This document shows positions 3,233 through 35,072 of a stretch of 38,888 nucleotides of DNA, one piece after another. A program made the translations under genes and the position numbers. The notes beneath the pieces are model-generated. The model was not told the DNA's origin and made no database searches. It worked only from the letters and a program-made list of their open reading frames with translations. Position 1 is the stretch's first letter. Each line of letters starts with the position of its first letter. The stretch is from a virus: UHGV virus genome UHGV-0098678; one strand, written 5' to 3'.

Positions 3233-3623
3233 CGTCTTTTCTCCCCGGAATTAACTCGCGTGGATTATCGGAACGGTGATAGAGCCAGATGCCAATACGC
3301 ACGGCGACAATTGCTGACACGAATGCGCCTGCAGAGAAAACAATCCCTTTTTCAAAAGAGTCCTGCGTGATGGTAGGGATCAGGCTGGCTATGCCGATAA
3401 GAATTGATGCTGCTGGTTTGTAAAAGAGAAGGCCGCAAAGAAAGCTGAGCATCGACAGGAGCACCCGGCGACGGATGGGGTACTCTACTGCAGAGGTAAC
3501 AAAAATTACCGCCCCAGCCAAAGCCCCTAAAGCAACCTCCGGAGGGACACCTGCAATAACCGCAGCAAGAGAACTAACACTAAGCCACTGATTTGAAGTT
3601 TCATTGGTTAGTTGGAATGACAT
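3219..3623 (-). CDS. holin-like membrane protein
   Basis: 134 aa with several hydrophobic helices (LAAVIAGVPPEVALGALAGAVIFV, ILIGIASLIPTI, FSAGAFVSAIVAVRIGIWLY) and a charged C-terminus; first gene of the lysis cassette after the tail fiber. Confidence 0.45.
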   Translation of the reverse strand: MSFQLTNETSNQWLSVSSLAAVIAGVPPEVALGALAGAVIFVTSAVEYPIRRRVLLSMLSFLCGLLFYKPAASILIGIASLIPTITQDSFEKGIVFSAGAFVSAIVAVRIGIWLYHRSDNPRELIPGRKDDGNA

Positions 3624-6158: not shown

Positions 6159-6262
6159 GTTAAATCTCCAGATAGTCGCAGCACCCGTTGCGCCGCATAT
6201 CTGGTTATTCTATTACCCAAAAAACCATATATGGATAGAAAGACTGTGAATATGAATAGATA

Positions 6263-6277
6263 TTACCTTTCAGGTAA
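6263..6277. promoter_or_regulatory. 15-bp palindrome TTACC-N5-GGTAA (putative repressor operator)
   Basis: TTACCtttcaGGTAA, extended palindrome aTTACC...GGTAAt at 6262-6278; about 40 bp upstream of the LexA box and antirepressor gene; same core as the site at 24915. Confidence 0.5.
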
Positions 6278-6314
6278 TTTGCAAAACGTGCTGGATAGCA
6301 AACAAATTATTTGA

Positions 6315-6334
6315 TACTGTATAAATATACAGTT
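6315..6334. promoter_or_regulatory. LexA (SOS) box
   Basis: tACTGTataaatatACAGtt: CTGT-N8-ACAG with AT-rich spacer, matching the gammaproteobacterial LexA consensus TACTGTATATATATACAGTA; ends 6 nt before the ATG at 6340. Confidence 0.8.
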
Positions 6335-6612: not shown

Positions 6613-6643
6613 GGTTTGAAATTACCAAATGGAGTGCTTATAT

Positions 6644-6658
6644 TTACCTTTGCGGTAA
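6644..6658. promoter_or_regulatory. 15-bp palindrome TTACC-N5-GGTAA (putative operator)
   Basis: TTACCtttgcGGTAA inside a 19-bp perfect palindrome atTTACCtttgcGGTAAat (6642-6660); itself flanked by inverted repeat GGAGTGC/GCACTCC. Confidence 0.45.
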
Positions 6659-6751
6659 ATTTACATTGCACTCCTCTTGTGCCATAGTAATCAGGCACTG
6701 GCAAAATCCAGTGCCGGGATTGGTCTCCCGGATTACTACAGAGGCACATAT

Positions 6752-6771
6752 GCCGCATAAGCGGTTTTTTT
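6752..6771 (+). terminator. weak rho-independent terminator candidate
   Basis: Short GC stem (CCGC ataa GCGG) followed by seven T residues, about 140 nt downstream of the small antirepressor ORF. Confidence 0.3.
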
Positions 6772-6925
6772 ATGTGTAAAGCGCACCTATTCTATGGTGG
6801 GCTGTGTGGGGGCACCGAAAGGTGCGCCGGGTTCCTTTGTAGCCGGTAAGACCAACTCTGCACAGTTCACCACCATCTGATTGGTCTCAGCGGTGGTGAT
6901 TAACCTAACTACAAAGGTGATCGCC

Positions 6926-7618
6926 ATGAATACCAAACCTTCCATCTTTTCCTTTGAGTCATCCTGCCAGATCCGTATGTTCATGATTGACGGAGAACCT
7001 TGGTTTGTCACCAAAGATGTGTGCAATGCTTTGAATATTGATGTTACACAAGCGAGAAAACTTGATAAAAAAGGCTGGAACAAAAAGGGGCTGTATTCAA
7101 TACAGACCCCTGGTGGAATACAAGAACTATCCATCGTTTCAGAATCAGGTCTCTACATCCTTATTCTGCGTTGCAAAGAGGCAATGACAGAGGGAACGAG
7201 AGCATTCAGATTTCTTGAATGGGTTACAGGTGAGGTTCTTCCTCAGATCCGCCGCACCGGAAGTTACATTAAAAACTCGCTCCCGCAGGAAGAACGCATA
7301 AAGATGGTTGCCGACCAGGTAGCCAACGCCACAGCATCAGCAGTGATGCAGGCAATGAAGATAGAGAACAAAACCTACAGTGCCCCACTGAAGCCCGGCT
7401 ACCGCAGCCTGATTCACTCGCCGTCTGGTGTTCTCGGCCTGACGGAGAACTCACTGCTGATGAATCTGCTGAACCAGTTACAGGACGACGGGCACGACGT
7501 ATCGGGCGCGGCGGCGGAGCTGACCACCATGTTCTGCTACATCGTTGGTGTGAGCAAATGCCTGCGTGATATCCAGACGCACGCGGAGTACATCAACGAC
7601 AAGGCAGGGTTCTTCTGA
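6926..7618 (+). CDS. Bro-N domain antirepressor
   Basis: ATG at 6926 with SD AAAGGTGA; N-terminus FSFESSCQIRMFMIDGEPWFVTKDVCNALNI matches the Bro-N/antirepressor fold; C-terminal domain is paralogous to the small ORF at 6340-6612. Confidence 0.75.
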   Translation: MNTKPSIFSFESSCQIRMFMIDGEPWFVTKDVCNALNIDVTQARKLDKKGWNKKGLYSIQTPGGIQELSIVSESGLYILILRCKEAMTEGTRAFRFLEWVTGEVLPQIRRTGSYIKNSLPQEERIKMVADQVANATASAVMQAMKIENKTYSAPLKPGYRSLIHSPSGVLGLTENSLLMNLLNQLQDDGHDVSGAAAELTTMFCYIVGVSKCLRDIQTHAEYINDKAGFF

Positions 7619-7684
7619 CGGGCGGCGGCACAGGGATGTGCCTTTAAAATAATCATTGGCGATGTGATGTAGATTCGCGTAATA

Positions 7685-7699
7685 TTACCTTAAAGGTAA
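7685..7699. promoter_or_regulatory. 15-bp palindrome TTACC-N5-GGTAA (putative operator)
   Basis: TTACCttaaaGGTAA immediately upstream of the SD (AGGAGG) and ATG of the 55-aa ORF at 7712. Confidence 0.45.
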
Positions 7700-7711
7700 A
7701 GGAGGCGCGAT

Positions 7712-22630: not shown

Positions 22631-22927
22631 TCACTCCTGTTCACTGGCCTCTTTGGCCATCTTCAAATACTGTTCAGGGCAATGCGCCATAACGCGCTGA
22701 AACAGTTCCAGCGCCAGATTGCGTTGCCCCTCATTAAATGCCATAGCCATAGCGTCCATCGGTGAGATAGCGGAAAACACACGGCCTTTCTCCAGCACCG
22801 ACCAGACAACGCGACGCCCCTGTTCACTGCTCATGACAAAGCAAATGTCATCAATTTCACGCTGTGCCATGTCACGTTGCTTACGGGCGTTTTCTTCTTT
22901 CAGTTGATCGTCTTCGTAATCTGTCAT
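22631..22927 (-). CDS. hypothetical protein between portal and scaffold
   Basis: 98 aa; ATGA overlap with the portal stop; charged/helical. Confidence 0.45.
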   Translation of the reverse strand: MTDYEDDQLKEENARKQRDMAQREIDDICFVMSSEQGRRVVWSVLEKGRVFSAISPMDAMAMAFNEGQRNLALELFQRVMAHCPEQYLKMAKEASEQE

Positions 22928-24824: not shown

Positions 24825-24914
24825 ATCAATGACTCCGTACGCAATTAAATTATTACCAATTTAACCACATATGATTTATTTATCGTAGACAGTTGACATT
24901 TAACGTGCGAATTA

Positions 24915-24929
24915 TTACCTTTCAGGTAA
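24915..24929. promoter_or_regulatory. 15-bp palindrome TTACC-N5-GGTAA (putative operator)
   Basis: TTACCtttcaGGTAA, same core as the site at 6263; a TTGACA hexamer lies 17 nt upstream (24893-24898); in the noncoding gap between the portal-side genes and the tRNA. Confidence 0.45.
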
Positions 24930-25251
24930 CCAAAGAGTTCATTCCGGTTACTAACCTGACTGGCTTGTCGTTAAATTGAACAGGTGGAGTGAGCTTTTAT
25001 TTTGAGCAGTACGGCGTATGGCACATGCGCCGATAGCGGTCTGGATGCGTTTAAGGGGCACCCTCCCTGGCTGTGGCAAACGAACCAGGTAGCCGGAATG
25101 TGCAAGTCGAGCGGTTTTATTCCGCGCACGGGGATTCACCATCCCGGCGATTCGGTGTGACGCCTCGGAAGAGACGAGGGTACAACGATGAGAGCATTTA
25201 TGGAGCCGCGACAAAGTGTGGCGCCTTAACAGGCTAAGTGCTCTCAGCGTT

Positions 25252-25328
25252 GTGGCATTAGCTCAGTTGGACAGAGCAACCGCCTTCTAAGCGGTTGGTC
25301 GCAGGTTCGAATCCTGCATGCCACGCCA
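25252..25328 (+). tRNA. tRNA-Arg (anticodon UCU)
   Basis: Hand-folded cloverleaf: acceptor GTGGCAT/ATGCCAC, D-arm GCTC...GAGC, anticodon stem ACCGC/GCGGT with loop CTTCTAA (anticodon TCT), 5-nt variable loop, T-arm GCAGG-TTCGAAT-CCTGC, discriminator G, encoded CCA. Confidence 0.85.
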
Positions 25329-25526: not shown

Positions 25527-25949
25527 ATGAAAACAGCCGACATGCTAGCTAAATATCTAAATGAATGGCCGTGCAAATATGTACGCATTGTTCAGGGTGA
25601 TGACTCAATTTTTTATGGTGTTTTTGCAGGAAATGAAATGCTTTGTGAAGCAATTCCAGGTGAGCGACTTGCCGGGTTAACGCTTAGCGATGACCATGGA
25701 ATAGGAGTTACTTGCCATGACTGGATTTCAGCGCAGAAAACTGAAATGGAAAAAGGCAATGTGTTTGATATTTCTCGCGCTGTATACGCCAAAGAAAAAA
25801 GTGATGATGATTACATGCGCGAAAACTTATACAACATGAAGTTACAATGCCTGGCTGAAGTGCTTAGTAAAAGATCTTTACTTGATGTGGTTGGTGCTGA
25901 GCAGGACGCCAAGGCAATCAACGCCGCATTCGATAAAATAACCTTCTAA
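25527..25949 (+). CDS. hypothetical protein (moron, opposite strand to the structural operon)
   Basis: 140 aa; ATG 25527 with SD AAGGTGAG; flanked by terminators on both sides; no recognisable family. Confidence 0.55.
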   Translation: MKTADMLAKYLNEWPCKYVRIVQGDDSIFYGVFAGNEMLCEAIPGERLAGLTLSDDHGIGVTCHDWISAQKTEMEKGNVFDISRAVYAKEKSDDDYMRENLYNMKLQCLAEVLSKRSLLDVVGAEQDAKAINAAFDKITF

Positions 25950-25969
25950 CGCCGTGACATGTCACAATC

Positions 25970-25995
25970 AGCCCGCCGATTCGCGGGCTTTTTTA
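25970..25995 (+). terminator. rho-independent terminator
   Basis: Stem GCCCGC cgattc GCGGGC followed by TTTTTT; overlaps the stop codon of the convergent TerL gene. Confidence 0.65.
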
Positions 25996-27468
25996 TGCAA
26001 AAGGATCATAGTCTGTGATGGCTTTGCCTTGCTGGTTCTGCTGCCCAGGAATTCGCAGACGCTTCGACACAGGGAAAGCAAACGTCAGCAGTAGCGCATC
26101 GCCTTTACCCGGCGAACGCCCAAGCCGCTCCTTGATATCTTCCTTCGGTTCGATAACGATTTTACCGTCCACACGAACTTTGTACTCTGCTGCCGACAGG
26201 TCGTCCGCTGTTTCCTGGTCATCCAGCATGCCGCCGAGCCTCAGCCATGTCTTGCATGAGTTGAACATCTCCCCACGCTTGTTGAGCATCTGCGGGTCAG
26301 TAGACGCGCCACCGAACGGAACAAGTTGCCATGTACGACCCCAGCCGTCACCGATTGACTTCAGACCAGTTCCGTAACCGAAGTCGATGAACACTGCGTC
26401 AGCCTGGTACTGGTCTTCAAAGTCAGCGATACGCTTCGCCATAATCAGATCGTCAGTGGTCTTGTTGCCAGTCCACAGCACCTTACTGTGCAGCCCCTGC
26501 CGCAGGTATATCACAGCGTCATCAACGCCTGAGTATGCCGGGTCAACGCCGATTATCACCGGAGCATGTGCAACCTGCGCAGCGGTTACCACCCGTTTCA
26601 TTGCCTCGTCAGTAAGACCGGTAGGGATAAACTGCAATTCAGATGCATCAGGGAATATGCCGCGCACACGGATTTTAACGAAGTCGCTATCTTCCCCGTA
26701 GTCATCAACCCATTTCTGCAACTGCTGTTTGTTAGTGCCTTCCACCGTCCGGCTGTCAATCTGCGCAGTTTTCCAGCGGTGTTTATATTTGCGGAAACAT
26801 TCGCGGAAACGCCCGGTGTTACGTGTAGGGTTTCCGAACGCTACCCAGATAATCTCAGTGTCTTCGTCCGTAAGCGCACCCTCAGCAACTTCCCACACCA
26901 GATCCGCAATGTTCGACGCTTCATCGAATACCACGATGATGCGTTTGCGCTCGTTGTGTAGTCCGGCGAACGCCTCAGTGTTGTGCTCAGACCAGGGGAT
27001 TGCGTCAGCTCGCCACCGCTTGTCGTGCCCAGGGTCATTGCTGTACATCGCGGTAGCGGTACAGGTAAACCAGTCTTTCGTGATAGCAAGGTTCGACCAC
27101 TTGATAATTTCCGGCCAGGTCTTCGTTCGTAGCTGGTTGTCGGTGTTGGCGGTCACCACAACCTTACAATCCTCGCAAGTGGACATGCCCCAGTTGATCA
27201 GCATTGAGATGAATGCGGATTTACCAATACCGTGACCCGAAGCGCGTGCCAGCATAAGCGGCTGATAGCGCGTCTCTGGATTCTGCAGGTGATCACGTAT
27301 CTCTCGGAACGCATCAGCCTGCCACTGACGTGGACCGGTGGCATGTGCCAGTTCAGTCCCATCTTCCCCCCACGGGAACGCATAGAGGGCATAGCCAAGC
27401 GGATCGTGAGTGAACCCTGCAATATCCTCGATTAACTGCTCTTCAGGAGATAACGCTGTATCTGTCAC
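25993..27468 (-). CDS. terminase large subunit
   Basis: 491 aa; GTG start overlapping the TerS stop (GTGA); Walker A-like ARASGHGIGKS and acidic motif IIVVFDEASNI typical of TerL ATPase domains; C-terminal nuclease-like region. Confidence 0.8.
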   Translation of the reverse strand: MTDTALSPEEQLIEDIAGFTHDPLGYALYAFPWGEDGTELAHATGPRQWQADAFREIRDHLQNPETRYQPLMLARASGHGIGKSAFISMLINWGMSTCEDCKVVVTANTDNQLRTKTWPEIIKWSNLAITKDWFTCTATAMYSNDPGHDKRWRADAIPWSEHNTEAFAGLHNERKRIIVVFDEASNIADLVWEVAEGALTDEDTEIIWVAFGNPTRNTGRFRECFRKYKHRWKTAQIDSRTVEGTNKQQLQKWVDDYGEDSDFVKIRVRGIFPDASELQFIPTGLTDEAMKRVVTAAQVAHAPVIIGVDPAYSGVDDAVIYLRQGLHSKVLWTGNKTTDDLIMAKRIADFEDQYQADAVFIDFGYGTGLKSIGDGWGRTWQLVPFGGASTDPQMLNKRGEMFNSCKTWLRLGGMLDDQETADDLSAAEYKVRVDGKIVIEPKEDIKERLGRSPGKGDALLLTFAFPVSKRLRIPGQQNQQGKAITDYDPFA

Positions 27469-28061
27469 TGATTACCATCCTGACGTTCTTTGAGTCGCTT
27501 CCTGGCTGCTGCTATGCGATCAGCAATTGTCACATTCACATTAACATCCAGACGTTCTTTGAATGCGTTGACATCAACATGCTTACCAATCAGCTCAAGG
27601 TTCTTCACCTTGTCAGGCCATTTAATTTTTTTGAGGATTGTCTCTATTGAATCCTCGTTCATGTTCATGATGGTCGATGACAGATCAAAGCCACTAAGCG
27701 TAGTGCGCCAGATTTTCGGCCACTCACGGATTGGTTTAAGGCTCCCATCGTCGTTGAGGATGTCGATCACGTCCATCTGGTCGATCTCCACCAGGCGCAT
27801 GAGAACGTAATCAGCACTGACACGCATTCGTTTGTTGCGCTCCTCCATCAACTCGGCAATCCGTTTCTGAATGCGTTCATCGCGCATCATGACACTGGCT
27901 TTAACTGCCGCTGTATTTGGGGAGAATCCTGCGTTAATCGCAGCCTGAGTCTGGTTTTCAGGCGTTTTGATGTATGACTGGCAATAAGCCTCCTGCATTG
28001 CTGTGAGCGGCTTAAATTGCGTTGATTTGCGTTTATAGGTTTTAGGTTCAGCAGGCATCAT
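27465..28061 (-). CDS. terminase small subunit (start uncertain)
   Basis: Motif block AMQEAYCQSYIKTPENQTQAAINAGFSPNTAAVKASVMMRDERIQKRIAELMEE matches the TerS DNA-binding domain pattern; start taken at ATG 28061 (MMPAEPK...) because the track ORF begins at an upstream TTG with a hydrophobic extension. Confidence 0.6.
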   Translation of the reverse strand: MMPAEPKTYKRKSTQFKPLTAMQEAYCQSYIKTPENQTQAAINAGFSPNTAAVKASVMMRDERIQKRIAELMEERNKRMRVSADYVLMRLVEIDQMDVIDILNDDGSLKPIREWPKIWRTTLSGFDLSSTIMNMNEDSIETILKKIKWPDKVKNLELIGKHVDVNAFKERLDVNVNVTIADRIAAARKRLKERQDGNQ

Positions 28062-28078
28062 AACTACCGTGGTAATTG

Positions 28079-28093
28079 TTACCGTTGTGGTAA
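28079..28093. promoter_or_regulatory. 15-bp palindrome TTACC-N5-GGTAA (putative operator)
   Basis: TTACCgttgtGGTAA about 18 nt upstream of the proposed TerS start, just downstream of a - strand terminator hairpin. Confidence 0.45.
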
Positions 28094-28103
28094 TAATACC
28101 ATG

Positions 28104-28130
28104 CAAAATAAAGCCGCCATAGTTGGCGGC
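28104..28130 (-). terminator. rho-independent terminator on the - strand upstream of TerS (tR'-like position)
   Basis: On the - strand: GCCGCC aacuau GGCGGC followed by UUUAUUUU; located between the Cys-rich small gene (28180-28518) and TerS. Confidence 0.55.
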
Positions 28131-28179
28131 AGTATTCAAAATCCATCAAATTCATCATGCATAATCTACTCGTGACATG

Positions 28180-28518
28180 TCACACTATTAATTTCGTTTC
28201 ATGCCAGCCTTTAGTCACCCAGCATTGTGAGTCACCATTACACGGACATGAATTAACTGGAACTCTCTCGCCGCACTTACCGCAACGTGTTCTGCTGATC
28301 GATTTTATACGCCCGTGCACGCGTGCATCATCCTGGCGGATCAGTAACGCTATATACTCACCAAATTCGTAAGGCGCACGCCCGGGGCGACGCGTGGCAC
28401 AGTTACGCTCCAGAATTTCAATTTCCTGAGCATCAAGCACAATCTCCAGCTTACGCACACCAGATGCAGCTTGTCTGGCTCTCTGAGCGGCTTTGCGCTC
28501 TGCTGCTGATTTAGCCAT
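28180..28518 (-). CDS. hypothetical DNA-binding-like protein with Cys-rich C-terminal zinc-ribbon motif (candidate late regulator)
   Basis: ATG 28518 (track ORF begins one codon earlier at TTG); N-terminal basic/helical region (KLEIVLDAQEIEILERN) and C-terminal CGKCGERVPVNSCPCNGDSQC; last gene before the terminator and TerS. Confidence 0.4.
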   Translation of the reverse strand: MAKSAAERKAAQRARQAASGVRKLEIVLDAQEIEILERNCATRRPGRAPYEFGEYIALLIRQDDARVHGRIKSISRTRCGKCGERVPVNSCPCNGDSQCWVTKGWHETKLIV

Positions 28519-28792
28519 CAATATTTACCTTTATCGCGAACACCTTTACCGGTTTATCACCGAAGTGCGGATGTGTGATTGTCTTTATTTCATATCCGTT
28601 ATACGGGACGTCAATTCTGCGACTGAAGTCTTCGCGCTTCGGATATCCCTTTGTGATAATCAGGCGGTAATACTTACGGTTAACGAGGCGCTTATTCCAG
28701 TAGTCATTACACAGGCGATACTCTTCCGTTTTCTCCCCGCGAATCATGGCATCGAAGTATTCACCTTTAACGGCAAGTTGCAGGTTAGCCAC
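28511..28792 (-). CDS. hypothetical protein, ASCH-like small beta-barrel candidate
   Basis: 93 aa; GTG start with strong SD AAGGAGG; sequence MANLQLAVKGEYFDAMIRGEKTEEYRL resembles ASCH/DUF3850-type proteins (low confidence). Confidence 0.4.
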   Translation of the reverse strand: MANLQLAVKGEYFDAMIRGEKTEEYRLCNDYWNKRLVNRKYYRLIITKGYPKREDFSRRIDVPYNGYEIKTITHPHFGDKPVKVFAIKVNIDG

Positions 28793-31919: not shown

Positions 31920-31966
31920 TTAAAAACCACATAAGACACGAAATCAATAGAGTTTAGAATATTTTA

Positions 31967-31981
31967 TTACCCAACAGGTAA
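31967..31981. promoter_or_regulatory. 15-bp palindrome TTACC-N5-GGTAA (putative operator)
   Basis: TTACCcaacaGGTAA, 62 bp from the previous site, in the intergenic region downstream of the P-like gene. Confidence 0.45.
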
Positions 31982-32018
31982 TTATCAAGGCGTAAAAAAA
32001 TGCGCTATCGCGCTGGTA

Positions 32019-32819
32019 TTACTTGATAAATCCTGCCGCCTTTCCCCGCCTGTATTCCTCCATCAGCCACTGCGCCGGTGTTATTCCCCCAAGGGTGGCG
32101 GCGTTAGGCATGCACCCGAAACTTCGCCCTGGTGGATGGTAAACGTCTCTCCCTGTGTCCGGAGGCGTACTCATGGGTTCTGGCTTTGCCTGTATGCTGA
32201 TCACCGGATCGGGTATCTGCTGTCCGGAAGCCACCTTTTTCGCCCAATCATCGAGCAGCCTGCGCGCGTGTTTCTCAACCTCTATCTCGCTAAGCTGGCG
32301 CTGATACATTGCACGGCGGGTATCACATACGACCCAGTACATAACCGGATGCCGCCACGGGAATCTTTCGGGACCACCAGGATATAAACTTTTTTCCTTG
32401 CTGTACCGGTGAAACTCCGTCATCACATCGTCAATGGTGACGCCAAGAACCATCTTGCTGTCTTTGCACCACTTGATGAATTGCCCTGGCGACGGCCAGA
32501 ACGGAGATTCACTGGCGCGGGCGTGGCGCATACCAGCAGAAACCTGTTCACGGGTTCGGATCCCCCCTTCGGCAAACGCAGCAATCCACTGCTGTTTTGC
32601 AGCAACTTCCTGCTCTGGCGTCTTCAGGTTGGTTACCACTGCCGCCGGAAACAGTTGTTTCAGCTGTTTGAAAAGGGCATCAACAAGCCTCTCTGCTGAC
32701 ATGTTCACCACGTTGTCATTGTTGGTGTACTGATGCTCATAACCTGACATGCGAGAAAGGGCTTCTCCGTCACGGTTTTGTATCGCGGTAAAAACGTTGT
32801 TCACAAGAAATCCTCCCAT
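32019..32819 (-). CDS. replication protein, lambda P-like (helicase loader)
   Basis: Block QLFPAAVVTNLKTPEQEVAAKQQWIAAFAEGGIRTREQVSAGMRHARASESPFWPSPGQFIKWC aligns with lambda P as recalled (FPASL...RRQWVLAFRENGITTMEQVNAGMRVARRQNRPFLPSPGQFVAWC); start overlaps the O-like gene end. Confidence 0.7.
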   Translation of the reverse strand: MGGFLVNNVFTAIQNRDGEALSRMSGYEHQYTNNDNVVNMSAERLVDALFKQLKQLFPAAVVTNLKTPEQEVAAKQQWIAAFAEGGIRTREQVSAGMRHARASESPFWPSPGQFIKWCKDSKMVLGVTIDDVMTEFHRYSKEKSLYPGGPERFPWRHPVMYWVVCDTRRAMYQRQLSEIEVEKHARRLLDDWAKKVASGQQIPDPVISIQAKPEPMSTPPDTGRDVYHPPGRSFGCMPNAATLGGITPAQWLMEEYRRGKAAGFIK

Positions 32820-33616
32820 GCTTCAGGGCTGTTCCAGTGCGGAACGTTGTTATCAGGTAATGTTGATTGCTTCTGTCTGCTAATCTGCAGCCGCCTTGCC
32901 AGCTTCTGCTCCCACTGTGCCTGATGGTATGCCTTACCCTCAGCCATCCAGTAAATTCTGAACTCTGCAAGTTCCTGTGCCGTTGGCAGACTGTCCAGGT
33001 AGATCCCCTGCAAGGAGCTTTTCCGAAGAAAGTCATCTGATGGCTGCCATTGTTCATGCATGACAAATTTGCCTAATTGCCCTGGCCCACCAGGAGGAAC
33101 AAAGTTATTCATCACGGCGTTGTTTGCGCCGGGGTCATGAGGCACAGAATCCCCGTTTTTTGTCCTGCTCTCCCTCTCTTGGTTAAATGACTGGTTATAT
33201 GACTGGTTCTGGATCCCGTTTTTGGGATCATTCAACATCCCGTTTTTGGGATCATTCAACATCCCGTTTTTGGGTATATTCCCGTTTTCGGTAACATTAC
33301 CGTTTTCGGGTTCATTGCCCCCCTCCCGGTTGCCTTTAATGTTCCCGTTTTTGGTTATATTAAGAGAGAAAACCCGCACTCTTTTCGTCGCTCCCTTTCT
33401 CTCTCCGGTATCTGAAATAAGCCCCATTTTCATGAGCGATATAAGCCCGGCCTGCACGGTTTTTTTATTCAGGCAAGTGTCTTTAACGAGGCGTTCTATG
33501 CTGGGGTAGCAGAGGTTATATTCATCGGCTCTGTCAGCCATCGAGAGCAGTATGAGCTTTAATGACGAGCTACCTGGATCTGTCTCCCAGGCCCAATCTG
33601 TTGCATGTCTGCTCAT
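32801..33616 (-). CDS. replication initiator, lambda O-like (HTH N-terminus, repeat-encoded linker, C-terminal P-interaction-like domain)
   Basis: 271 aa; SD GGAG; N-terminal HTH-like segment (LKLILLSMADRADEYNLCYPSIERLVKD); central Asn/Gly repeats encoded by DNA iterons; positioned directly upstream of the P-like gene. Confidence 0.6.
   Translation of the reverse strand: MSRHATDWAWETDPGSSSLKLILLSMADRADEYNLCYPSIERLVKDTCLNKKTVQAGLISLMKMGLISDTGERKGATKRVRVFSLNITKNGNIKGNREGGNEPENGNVTENGNIPKNGMLNDPKNGMLNDPKNGIQNQSYNQSFNQERESRTKNGDSVPHDPGANNAVMNNFVPPGGPGQLGKFVMHEQWQPSDDFLRKSSLQGIYLDSLPTAQELAEFRIYWMAEGKAYHQAQWEQKLARRLQISRQKQSTLPDNNVPHWNSPEAWEDFL
33213..33354. repeat. iteron array (putative replication origin) inside the O-like gene
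   Basis: Six copies of CCCGTTTT(T/C)GG beginning at 33215, 33239, 33263, 33281, 33300, 33344 (spacing 24, 24, 18, 19, 44 bp), two as perfect 24-bp units ATCCCGTTTTTGGGATCATTCAAC; an additional TGACTGGTT direct repeat at 33188-33208. Confidence 0.6.
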
Positions 33617-34367: not shown

Positions 34368-34952
34368 ATGAAAAGTATCCAGGACGTCCGCAGGCAAAAT
34401 CTCAACGACTTGATCGACCGTGAATTCAATGGTGTTCAGACGCGGATGGCAGAAAAACTTGGAACTCAGGCAAATCTGGTAAACCGCTGGGCTCTTGGCA
34501 AGAAGGTTATCGGCGACCAGGTTGCACGAAAAATTGAAGCTGCCGCCAATAAACCCCGTAACTGGCTTGATATTGATCGTTCGCTTTCTCAGGAGGGTTT
34601 TCAGCCTGTCGGACCAAGCGACATTGGTCAACTGGCGGCTCACAACCTGGAACGCTGGATGAGCGAAAGCCGCGACCTTTCAACACAGGGAAAACTTCAC
34701 CGCGCATCCGGCGTAGCCCAGGTGACAATCAGCCGCCTGTTAAACAATGAGGTCAGCGTTTCCATTTCCACCCTGGAGAATGTTGCATCCGCATTCGGGC
34801 GTCATGGCTATGAATTACTGATTCACCCGCACGACCCTGCGACCATCAACTATGATCGCTCGCGCTACGCATTGTTACCCGAAACCGAGAAAGCAAAGAT
34901 CGAAAGTTACATTGAATTTGTCATCAACCAGAACGAAAAAAGCAAACAATAA
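34368..34952 (+). CDS. phage repressor-like protein with two HTH domains and no S24 peptidase domain
   Basis: 194 aa; first HTH around QTRMAEKLGTQANLVNRWALGKK, second around LHRASGVAQVTISRLLNNEVSVSISTLENVASAFG; no Ala-Gly/Ser-Lys autocleavage module; sits between operator clusters like lambda cI. Confidence 0.55.
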   Translation: MKSIQDVRRQNLNDLIDREFNGVQTRMAEKLGTQANLVNRWALGKKVIGDQVARKIEAAANKPRNWLDIDRSLSQEGFQPVGPSDIGQLAAHNLERWMSESRDLSTQGKLHRASGVAQVTISRLLNNEVSVSISTLENVASAFGRHGYELLIHPHDPATINYDRSRYALLPETEKAKIESYIEFVINQNEKSKQ

Positions 34953-35043: not shown

Positions 35044-35072
35044 TTGACACCAAACCAAATAAGCATAATTAT
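35044..35072 (+). promoter_or_regulatory. candidate sigma70 promoter (pL-like) for the + strand early operon
   Basis: TTGACA (35044-35049), 17-nt spacer, AATTAT (35067-35072); its -10 abuts the operator at 35075. Confidence 0.4.

Follow-up and report, generated by a model that had tools for sequence, protein, structure and literature searches.

The window, a stretch of 38,888 nt, is a common prophage of E. coli that belongs to the temperate podoviruses of the epsilon15/phiV10 type (Uetakevirus and relatives), as assigned from gene content and DNA similarity. The genes of interest here, namely the early-right operon, terS and terL, are encoded on the minus strand. Gene order begins with the repressor gene (Rep), the replication genes and a Rep-controlled internal promoter, continues with genes for DUF1064, Ead/Ea22-like, DUF551 and ASCH proteins and a gene for a 112-aa protein (ATG at 28518, TGA at 28182–28180), and ends with terS, terL, an antisense accessory locus with a tRNA-Arg, and the portal, head, tail, tail spike and lysis genes (Table 1). 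The start codon of terS is at 28061 or 28058. The 901 bp surrounding the junction of the 112-aa gene and terS are 100% identical to several complete E. coli chromosomes, and 255 of 5426 complete E. coli genomes contain at least 80% of this region, counting the present variant only; the chromosomes that carry it have the 112-aa gene annotated as 'hypothetical protein'. A preliminary description drawn from the letters alone had placed the early/late boundary in this region, and the gene content bears this out: here the early-right operon gives way to the late (packaging) operon.

Table 1. Features of the early/late junction and of the sites and genes related to it (positions in the window)
Feature	Position	Strand	Basis or remark
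Gene of 112-aa RHH protein with C-terminal Cys knuckle (predicted), last early-right gene	28180–28518	-	epsilon15 gp49/N15 gp46 family, phrog_536
PAL1, perfect palindrome GTGACATGTCAC overlapping the stop codon of the 112-aa gene	28172–28183		candidate binding site
8-codon mini-ORF, remnant of a ~70-aa gene	28136–28162	-	comparison with relative L032
T1, intrinsic terminator that ends the early-right operon	28105–28130	-	7-bp stem (6 GC pairs), tetraloop, UUUAUUUU
P_terS, candidate extended -10 element TGGTATTAT	28093–28101	-	invariance of TGnTAnnAT
O1, Rep operator (ATTACCACAACGGTAAC) across the -10 element and the predicted start	28078–28094		1 mismatch; equivalent annotated in epsilon15
O2, weaker Rep operator covering the terS ribosome-binding site and start codon	28060–28076		2 mismatches
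terS, terminase small subunit, first late gene	27465–28061	-	Pfam Terminase_2 1e-29; phrog_51
terL, terminase large subunit	25993–27468	-	phrog_2 and phrog_5902
Hairpin separating terL from the convergent accessory gene	25970–25989	+	good U tract on the + strand only
PAL2, second perfect GTGACATGTCAC	25954–25965		4 nt off the hairpin and 4 nt off the stop codon of the convergent 140-aa gene
Rep, prophage repressor, expected binder of O1 and O2	34368–34952	+	SPC32H repressor PDB 5D50, 3.5e-42; phrog_8
Rep-controlled promoter TTGATA-16-TAAAAT with operator in the spacer, heads the operon of the 112-aa gene	31961–31988	-	best promoter match in the region

The terminator that had been noted between the last early gene and terS is real, and T1 is a genuine intrinsic terminator. 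The terminator scan returned the hairpin GCCGCCA-ACUA-UGGCGGC at 28130–28113 of the minus strand, followed by UUUAUUUU at 28112–28105, with a folding energy of -13.8 kcal/mol (z = -3.9; 0 of 200 shuffled sequences fold as well). Its position is kept in diverged relatives, and the epsilon15 RefSeq record already marks the homologous hairpin after gp49 as a rho-independent terminator; positional conservation and this annotation together predict termination in vivo. The hairpin behind terL has its good U tract on the opposite strand only, so terS transcripts may run on toward the portal genes.

When the interval from the 112-aa gene to terS was aligned for E. coli, Salmonella, Citrobacter, Rahnella and one Advenella bin, a conserved unit emerged before terS that consists of a hairpin, a T run and TTTTGC(A/G)TG-n-TA-nn-ATTACC-N5-GGTAA. 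Many E. coli relatives retain a ~70-aa gene between PAL1 and the terminator (e.g. L032 3357–3569). Where relatives carry an extra inserted gene (L008, L032), the terminator-promoter-operator unit stays by terS and the protein gene keeps its own palindrome. Citrobacter relatives have a LexA box behind the palindrome (L008 3385–3405; L012 ~3480–3500), and L008 has a small gene between this box and terS, so an SOS-controlled gene may occupy the junction in some variants.

The candidate promoter P_terS follows T1 and has no -35 element, because the T1 hairpin occupies that place. Its TG, TA and AT are invariant and its other positions are variable in relatives (TGGTACTAT, TGATACTAT, TGTTACTAT, TGTTATGAT), which is the pattern of an extended -10 element whose last two bases open the operator. 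The register between P_terS and operator is the same as at the strong promoter at 35044–35072 (TTGACA-17-AATTAT, TACC onward), and the overlap of operators with core elements at the 35.05-kb promoter and the 31.97-kb promoter follows the register seen at terS. From these features we infer promoter activity of TGGTATTAT, with the caveat that TGnTAnnAT alone is common and that its AT also belongs to the operator. O1 and O2 could act as roadblocks instead of promoter operators, and a promoter without a -35 element is also what an activator-dependent late promoter is expected to look like.

The window has 15 matches to the operator motif ATTACC-N5-GGTAAT where 0.9 are expected, including sites at 31966 and 31904 near the 31.97-kb promoter, and the equivalent site just before terS in the epsilon15 record is annotated as protein_bind 'repressor'. 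These findings corroborate the earlier suggestion of repressor input directly before terS, and they redefine the operator palindrome that had been placed near 28079: the palindrome exists (GGTAATTGTTACC, 28071–28083), but it is the junction of O1 and O2 half-sites and not a single operator. The window is in this respect an ordinary member of the epsilon15/SPC32H phages, which have Rep with dispersed operators (a P1 C1-like layout); O1 and O2 match, and Rep, Ant and the C4-type RNA are present. Directly upstream of the antirepressor gene ant (6881–7618), at 6695–6877 (+), Rfam models match an isrK-type sRNA and a C4 antisense RNA with 75 and 79 bits, and a LexA box (TACTGTATAAATATACAGT) and three Rep operators surround them (listed sites 6262–6278, 6315–6333, 6643–6659 and 7684–7700). 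As in phages of the SPC32H type, a P1/P7-like immI module is thereby joined to SOS control. The accessory locus that separates terL from the portal operon comprises a tRNA-Arg(TCT) gene (25252–25328, +) and a 140-aa gene (25527–25949, +, phrog_4846), both antisense to the late genes; the accessory genes at this spot differ among relatives. A further Rep operator at 24914–24930 overlaps a promoter-like site on the plus strand (TAGACA-18-AATTAT).

The 112-aa gene and its C-terminal Cys cluster are as first described. A whole-library HMMER search yielded 149 cluster representatives of its family, mostly 105–135 aa long. The alignment of 59 diverse members shows a conserved basic motif RKxxQRxR at the N-terminus, a core motif PY..EY..LIR and a C-terminal motif C..CG..LP.GC.G...GD..C, in which three Cys (C79, C82 and C99 of the 112-aa protein) are invariant or nearly so and a fourth stands at the GC position. 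No Pfam or NCBIfam family corresponds to the protein, the source names of 10 diverse family clusters are all 'hypothetical protein', and our literature search found no paper on the gp49/gp46 family, which is unnamed and unstudied as far as we found. A strand-helix-helix (ribbon-helix-helix, RHH) fold was predicted by the structure model, for which Foldseek against PDB and viral models returned only one RHH protein and one same-family fragment. Matches of the 59 members to Pfam RHH profiles are marginal (RHH_5 0.013, RepB-RCR_reg 0.028, RHH_1 0.071), as is the match to the NCBIfam LexA-regulated RHH protein (0.073). The protein models as an RHH DNA binder, which agrees with the DNA-binding regulator type initially proposed, for which RHH proteins were one of the suggested comparisons. 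Its C-terminal Cys knuckle is of uncertain relationship and probably binds zinc. No signature of the Q family was detected in Pfam, NCBIfam or the fold, and we do not regard the protein as a Q-family member.

The half of the protein that comprises helix and knuckle is marginally similar to TraR and YbiI (profile search of PDB sequences, E ~0.02–0.03; TraR E = 0.024), and F TraR aligns to the family with an hhalign probability of 64%. The family shares with DksA/TraR a helix followed by CxxCG..(L/I)P but has no second CxxC: only one Cys is conserved at the second knuckle of the 59 members, the R and P conserved in DksA/TraR are missing, and the TraR helix aligns with a segment that forms helix 2 in the predicted RHH core. 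We rejected DksA/TraR membership because this signature is incomplete and PF01258 is matched by 0 of 59 members. Homology to MatP was likewise rejected (hhalign against E. coli MatP, probability 0.55%), the similarity being at the level of the RHH fold only.

Members of the family are found in phages of Enterobacterales, Vibrio, Shewanella and Aeromonas, including phages and prophages of Salmonella, Klebsiella and Yersinia, and their genes take different positions. In epsilon15-like phages the homologue is the last early gene ahead of terS, in ZF40 it lies upstream of NinB, HNH and a Q-like gene (gp25), and in N15 it is flanked by Q (gene 40) and by the late promoter/terminator annotated at 41.16–41.25 kb. 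It follows the replication gene in P2-like Yersinia phages, adjoins xis and int in Pantoea phage AH07, and is part of the early region in elements of Vibrio, Shewanella, Salinivibrio and Pseudoalteromonas. P2-like phages have late regulators of another kind. The occurrence of homologues there and beside Q means that the 112-aa protein cannot be a general late switch. Three distant homologues from Vibrio, Pseudoalteromonas and related elements (L157, L159, L160) lie near anti-defence genes (Acb2/Tad1, Tad2-like, Sequestin) and adjoin a tyrosine recombinase gene on the same strand.

PAL1 and PAL2 are 2.2 kb apart and bracket terS–terL. The exact 12-mer GTGACATGTCAC thus has two perfect copies in the window, for which 0.002 are expected; for the degenerate form GTGAC-NN-GTCAC the expectation in the window is 0.03, and each phage genome examined has 2–3 copies. 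GTGAC-NN-GTCAC stands at the stop codon of the homologue, or a few bases beyond, in 138 of the 149 related loci. Half-sites are invariant with AT, TG, GC, CT or GG as centres, and when spacers of 1–4 bp were compared in the window and the loci then in hand, only the 2-bp spacer was present. The palindrome is kept across C-termini of different sequence and across contexts with unrelated downstream DNA. N15 has copies at 28550, 33237 and 39269; of these three, one is at the stop codon of gene 46, one between gene 33 and a terminator and one inside repA. ZF40 has three perfect copies (5125, 7622 and 14944). Even for homologues with ~30% identity (Vibrio, Salinivibrio, Shewanella), PAL was found within 6 kb in five of six loci, placed at the stop codon, just before the start of the gene, 24 nt before a terminator or, in Salinivibrio, 12 nt ahead of the terS start codon. 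Providencia homologues without PAL carry a different beta-strand (VIPQWQV versus RKLEIVL). PAL2 keeps its place after terL in epsilon15, in 58 of 83 related contigs and in L008 (C. werkmanii), irrespective of the accessory gene beside it; it is missing or degenerate in the C. braakii and Rahnella relatives and in TL-2011b, a relative from EHEC outbreak strains.

Several independent contexts have PAL 4–115 nt upstream of terminators. A terminator-like hairpin lies within 150 nt on the far side of PAL in 77 of 137 distinct contexts compared with 8% of random positions, an enrichment that is inflated because many of the loci are closely related and PAL lies at gene ends, where terminators are expected. 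The intragenic copies in ZF40 gp08 and gp12 and in N15 repA do not fit a pure boundary role. We rejected four other explanations of the palindrome or its surroundings: an RNA hairpin (-2.9 kcal/mol, z = -0.2, a stability that shuffled sequences match), the N15 SopB centromere (SopB repeats are GTGCGACC-NN-GGTCGCAC), the -35 element of a pR'-like promoter (the 9/12 match present in the window is not conserved), and a partner gene kept behind the regulator (the small genes found there are mutually unrelated). PAL is probably the binding site of the 112-aa protein, judging from the co-occurrence of gene and site. None of the papers in the literature searched contains the palindrome, and a strict tie of the gp49/gp46 family to a dispersed 12-bp palindrome appears to be unreported so far.

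PAL copies flank key modules in several genomes: in ZF40 they lie on either side of the cI-cro-cII region, 2.5 kb apart, and in N15 at the end of, and inside, the repA operon. Together with the pair in the window this could point to looping between sites. A copy with one mismatch (GTGCCATGTCAC) is present at 22864–22875 within the gene after the portal gene, with an equivalent in TL-2011b (L001 12269), and may simply reflect conserved coding sequence.

The best explanation overall, which we hold to be slightly more probable than all others taken together, is an RHH protein acting at PAL sites combined with a Rep-gated terS promoter at the operon boundary. The 112-aa product would be a sequence-specific DNA binder with a basic N-terminal helix, a dimerising RHH core and a Cys knuckle, and its likeliest target would be GTGAC-NN-GTCAC at PAL1 and PAL2. 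In the lysogen, Rep on the tandem operators O1 and O2 would shut terS off, as it would other genes at the other dispersed operators. After inactivation of Rep (Ant, the C4-type RNA and the LexA box lie at 6.3–7.6 kb), the early-right operon would be transcribed as far as T1, and terS would be started from its own weak extended -10 promoter just downstream. Late genes would then be gated chiefly by direct repression through dispersed Rep operators and not by Q-type antitermination. The RHH protein, made last in the early operon, would occupy PAL1 and PAL2 on either side of terS–terL and, bound near terminators, would act as a roadblock or insulator that stops or modulates RNA polymerase arriving at the terminase module from either flank. 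RHH proteins are typically repressors. For this reason, and because a stop codon precedes the sites, a terminator or a start codon follows them and their distance to P_terS is not fixed, we favour a repressive or insulating effect, with at most moderate support. It is reasonable to regard the junction as a site where late expression is gated with repressor input.

The initial proposal was that the junction mimics the Q-pR'-tR' arrangement of lambda, with the 112-aa protein as a compact antiterminator or activator. Both arrangements have a small regulator gene as the last early gene and an intrinsic terminator before the late genes; here, unlike in lambda, there is no conserved promoter with a Q-binding element upstream of the terminator, and the layout of a terminator followed by promoter and operator is the reverse of pR'-tR'. 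The sole sigma-70 match between gene and terminator (9/12, GTGACA-18-CATGAT) is not conserved in the epsilon15, Rahnella, N15 or ZF40 contexts. Transcripts from the conserved promoter-like element downstream of T1 need no antitermination, and homologues coexist with Q-like N15 gene 40 (with pR'/tR') and ZF40 gp25. Together with the missing Q signature and fold, these observations led us to abandon the analogy. In a modified form, the protein would load from PAL1 onto RNA polymerase transcribing the early operon and cause read-through of T1 into terS. The spacing of PAL upstream of terminators in independent contexts would suit such loading, as would the weak similarity of the C-terminal half to the RNA-polymerase-binding TraR, but the latter is offset by the incomplete signature and by the TraR-aligned helix being RHH helix 2. 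The protein has no Q-family homology, the conserved promoter downstream of T1 makes read-through unnecessary, real Q systems are present beside homologues, and PAL2 is oriented such that read-through would be directed antisense into terL. We consider this modified model highly improbable. Only a little less improbable, and still very unlikely, is a non-Q terminator-control system, in which an RHH dimer just upstream of intrinsic terminators would contact polymerase through a TraR-like knuckle and switch termination off or on, or in which MatP-like bridging of two or three sites would loop out key modules such as terS–terL. Family and sites would then make up a phage system not recognised before, and if termination were switched off, it would be a non-Q route to late-gene read-through.

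The 112-aa protein could instead be a late-gene activator that switches on the -35-less terS promoter, alone or after removal of Rep. In Gram-positive phages the genes of RinA, LtrC and ArpU lie immediately before terS, and the 112-aa protein, as the last early gene product encoded directly upstream of terS, would be their positional analogue. No Q-like gene was found among the scanned ORFs (all large ORFs outside the structural-gene block from tail spike to portal), and the protein is one of only two non-repressor regulator candidates among them; a late regulator may also be encoded within that structural-gene block. The Salinivibrio copy of PAL close to the terS start codon would also suit an activator. 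The distance from PAL1 to the -10 element, however, varies from ~64 bp in epsilon15 and 80 bp in the window to ~40–105 bp in Rahnella and Advenella and more than 250 bp with an inserted gene, and the -35 region contains no PAL half-site. The protein has no Pfam similarity to known late activators, and family and palindrome are present in N15, ZF40 and P2-like phages with other late regulators as well. An activator role is unlikely on this balance, yet we rate it above the remaining alternatives. In the last of these, PAL is not the target of the protein but a host-factor site or a module-boundary or recombination sequence, and the protein regulates something else, e.g. the variable small gene after it. 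The matS site of MatP is a 13-bp sequence, GTGAC[AG]N[TC]GTCAC, GTGACRNYGTCAC (PMC3603311, PMC3116907). PAL resembles matS minus one base and lies at junctions of variable gene content, where variable small genes with a ribosome-binding site follow it. The hosts of the family (Enterobacterales, Vibrio, Shewanella and Aeromonas) are roughly those in which MatP occurs. Against this reading, PAL has 12 bp and not 13 bp, the small downstream genes are not mutually homologous, the N15 SopB centromere repeats differ in sequence, and the site tracks the gene through unrelated contexts down to ~30% protein identity, as expected of a cognate pair. We regard it as quite unlikely.

The preferred combination of an RHH protein at PAL sites and a Rep-gated terS promoter differs from known systems in several respects. 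From MatP/matS it is set apart by the spacer of 2 bp instead of 3 bp, the absence of profile similarity to MatP and a different C-terminal domain. Compared with RHH regulators (Arc, Mnt, CopG, MetJ and the antitoxins MazE, ParD and TacA), whose Pfam profiles match marginally, the family has an extra basic N-terminal helix with RKxxQRxR and the Cys knuckle, and the candidate site is found not at the promoter of the gene but at its 3' end and at other scattered positions. The stoperators of mycobacteriophage L5 (gp71 sites) are short intergenic repressor sites, often over stop or start codons, that are thought to halt elongating polymerase; they are asymmetric, ~30 in number, and in lysogens are occupied by the prophage repressor. 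PAL is similarly a short dispersed site overlapping a stop codon, but there are 2–3 symmetric sites per genome and an early lytic operon encodes the protein.

Neither the terminator nor the repressor site is new, both being annotated in epsilon15; the lead is an unnamed protein family tied to a precise 12-bp site at operon boundaries. We found no literature on late transcription in the epsilon15/phiV10 group, in which no Q was detected among the scanned genes, and the 112-aa protein and its junction are the obvious starting point for work on the timing of late genes. Apart from the junction, the replication initiator gene (32801–33616) contains three to four copies of TCCCGTTTTTGGG at 33215–33295, which resemble origin iterons and two of which the terminator scan called 'terminator-like'.
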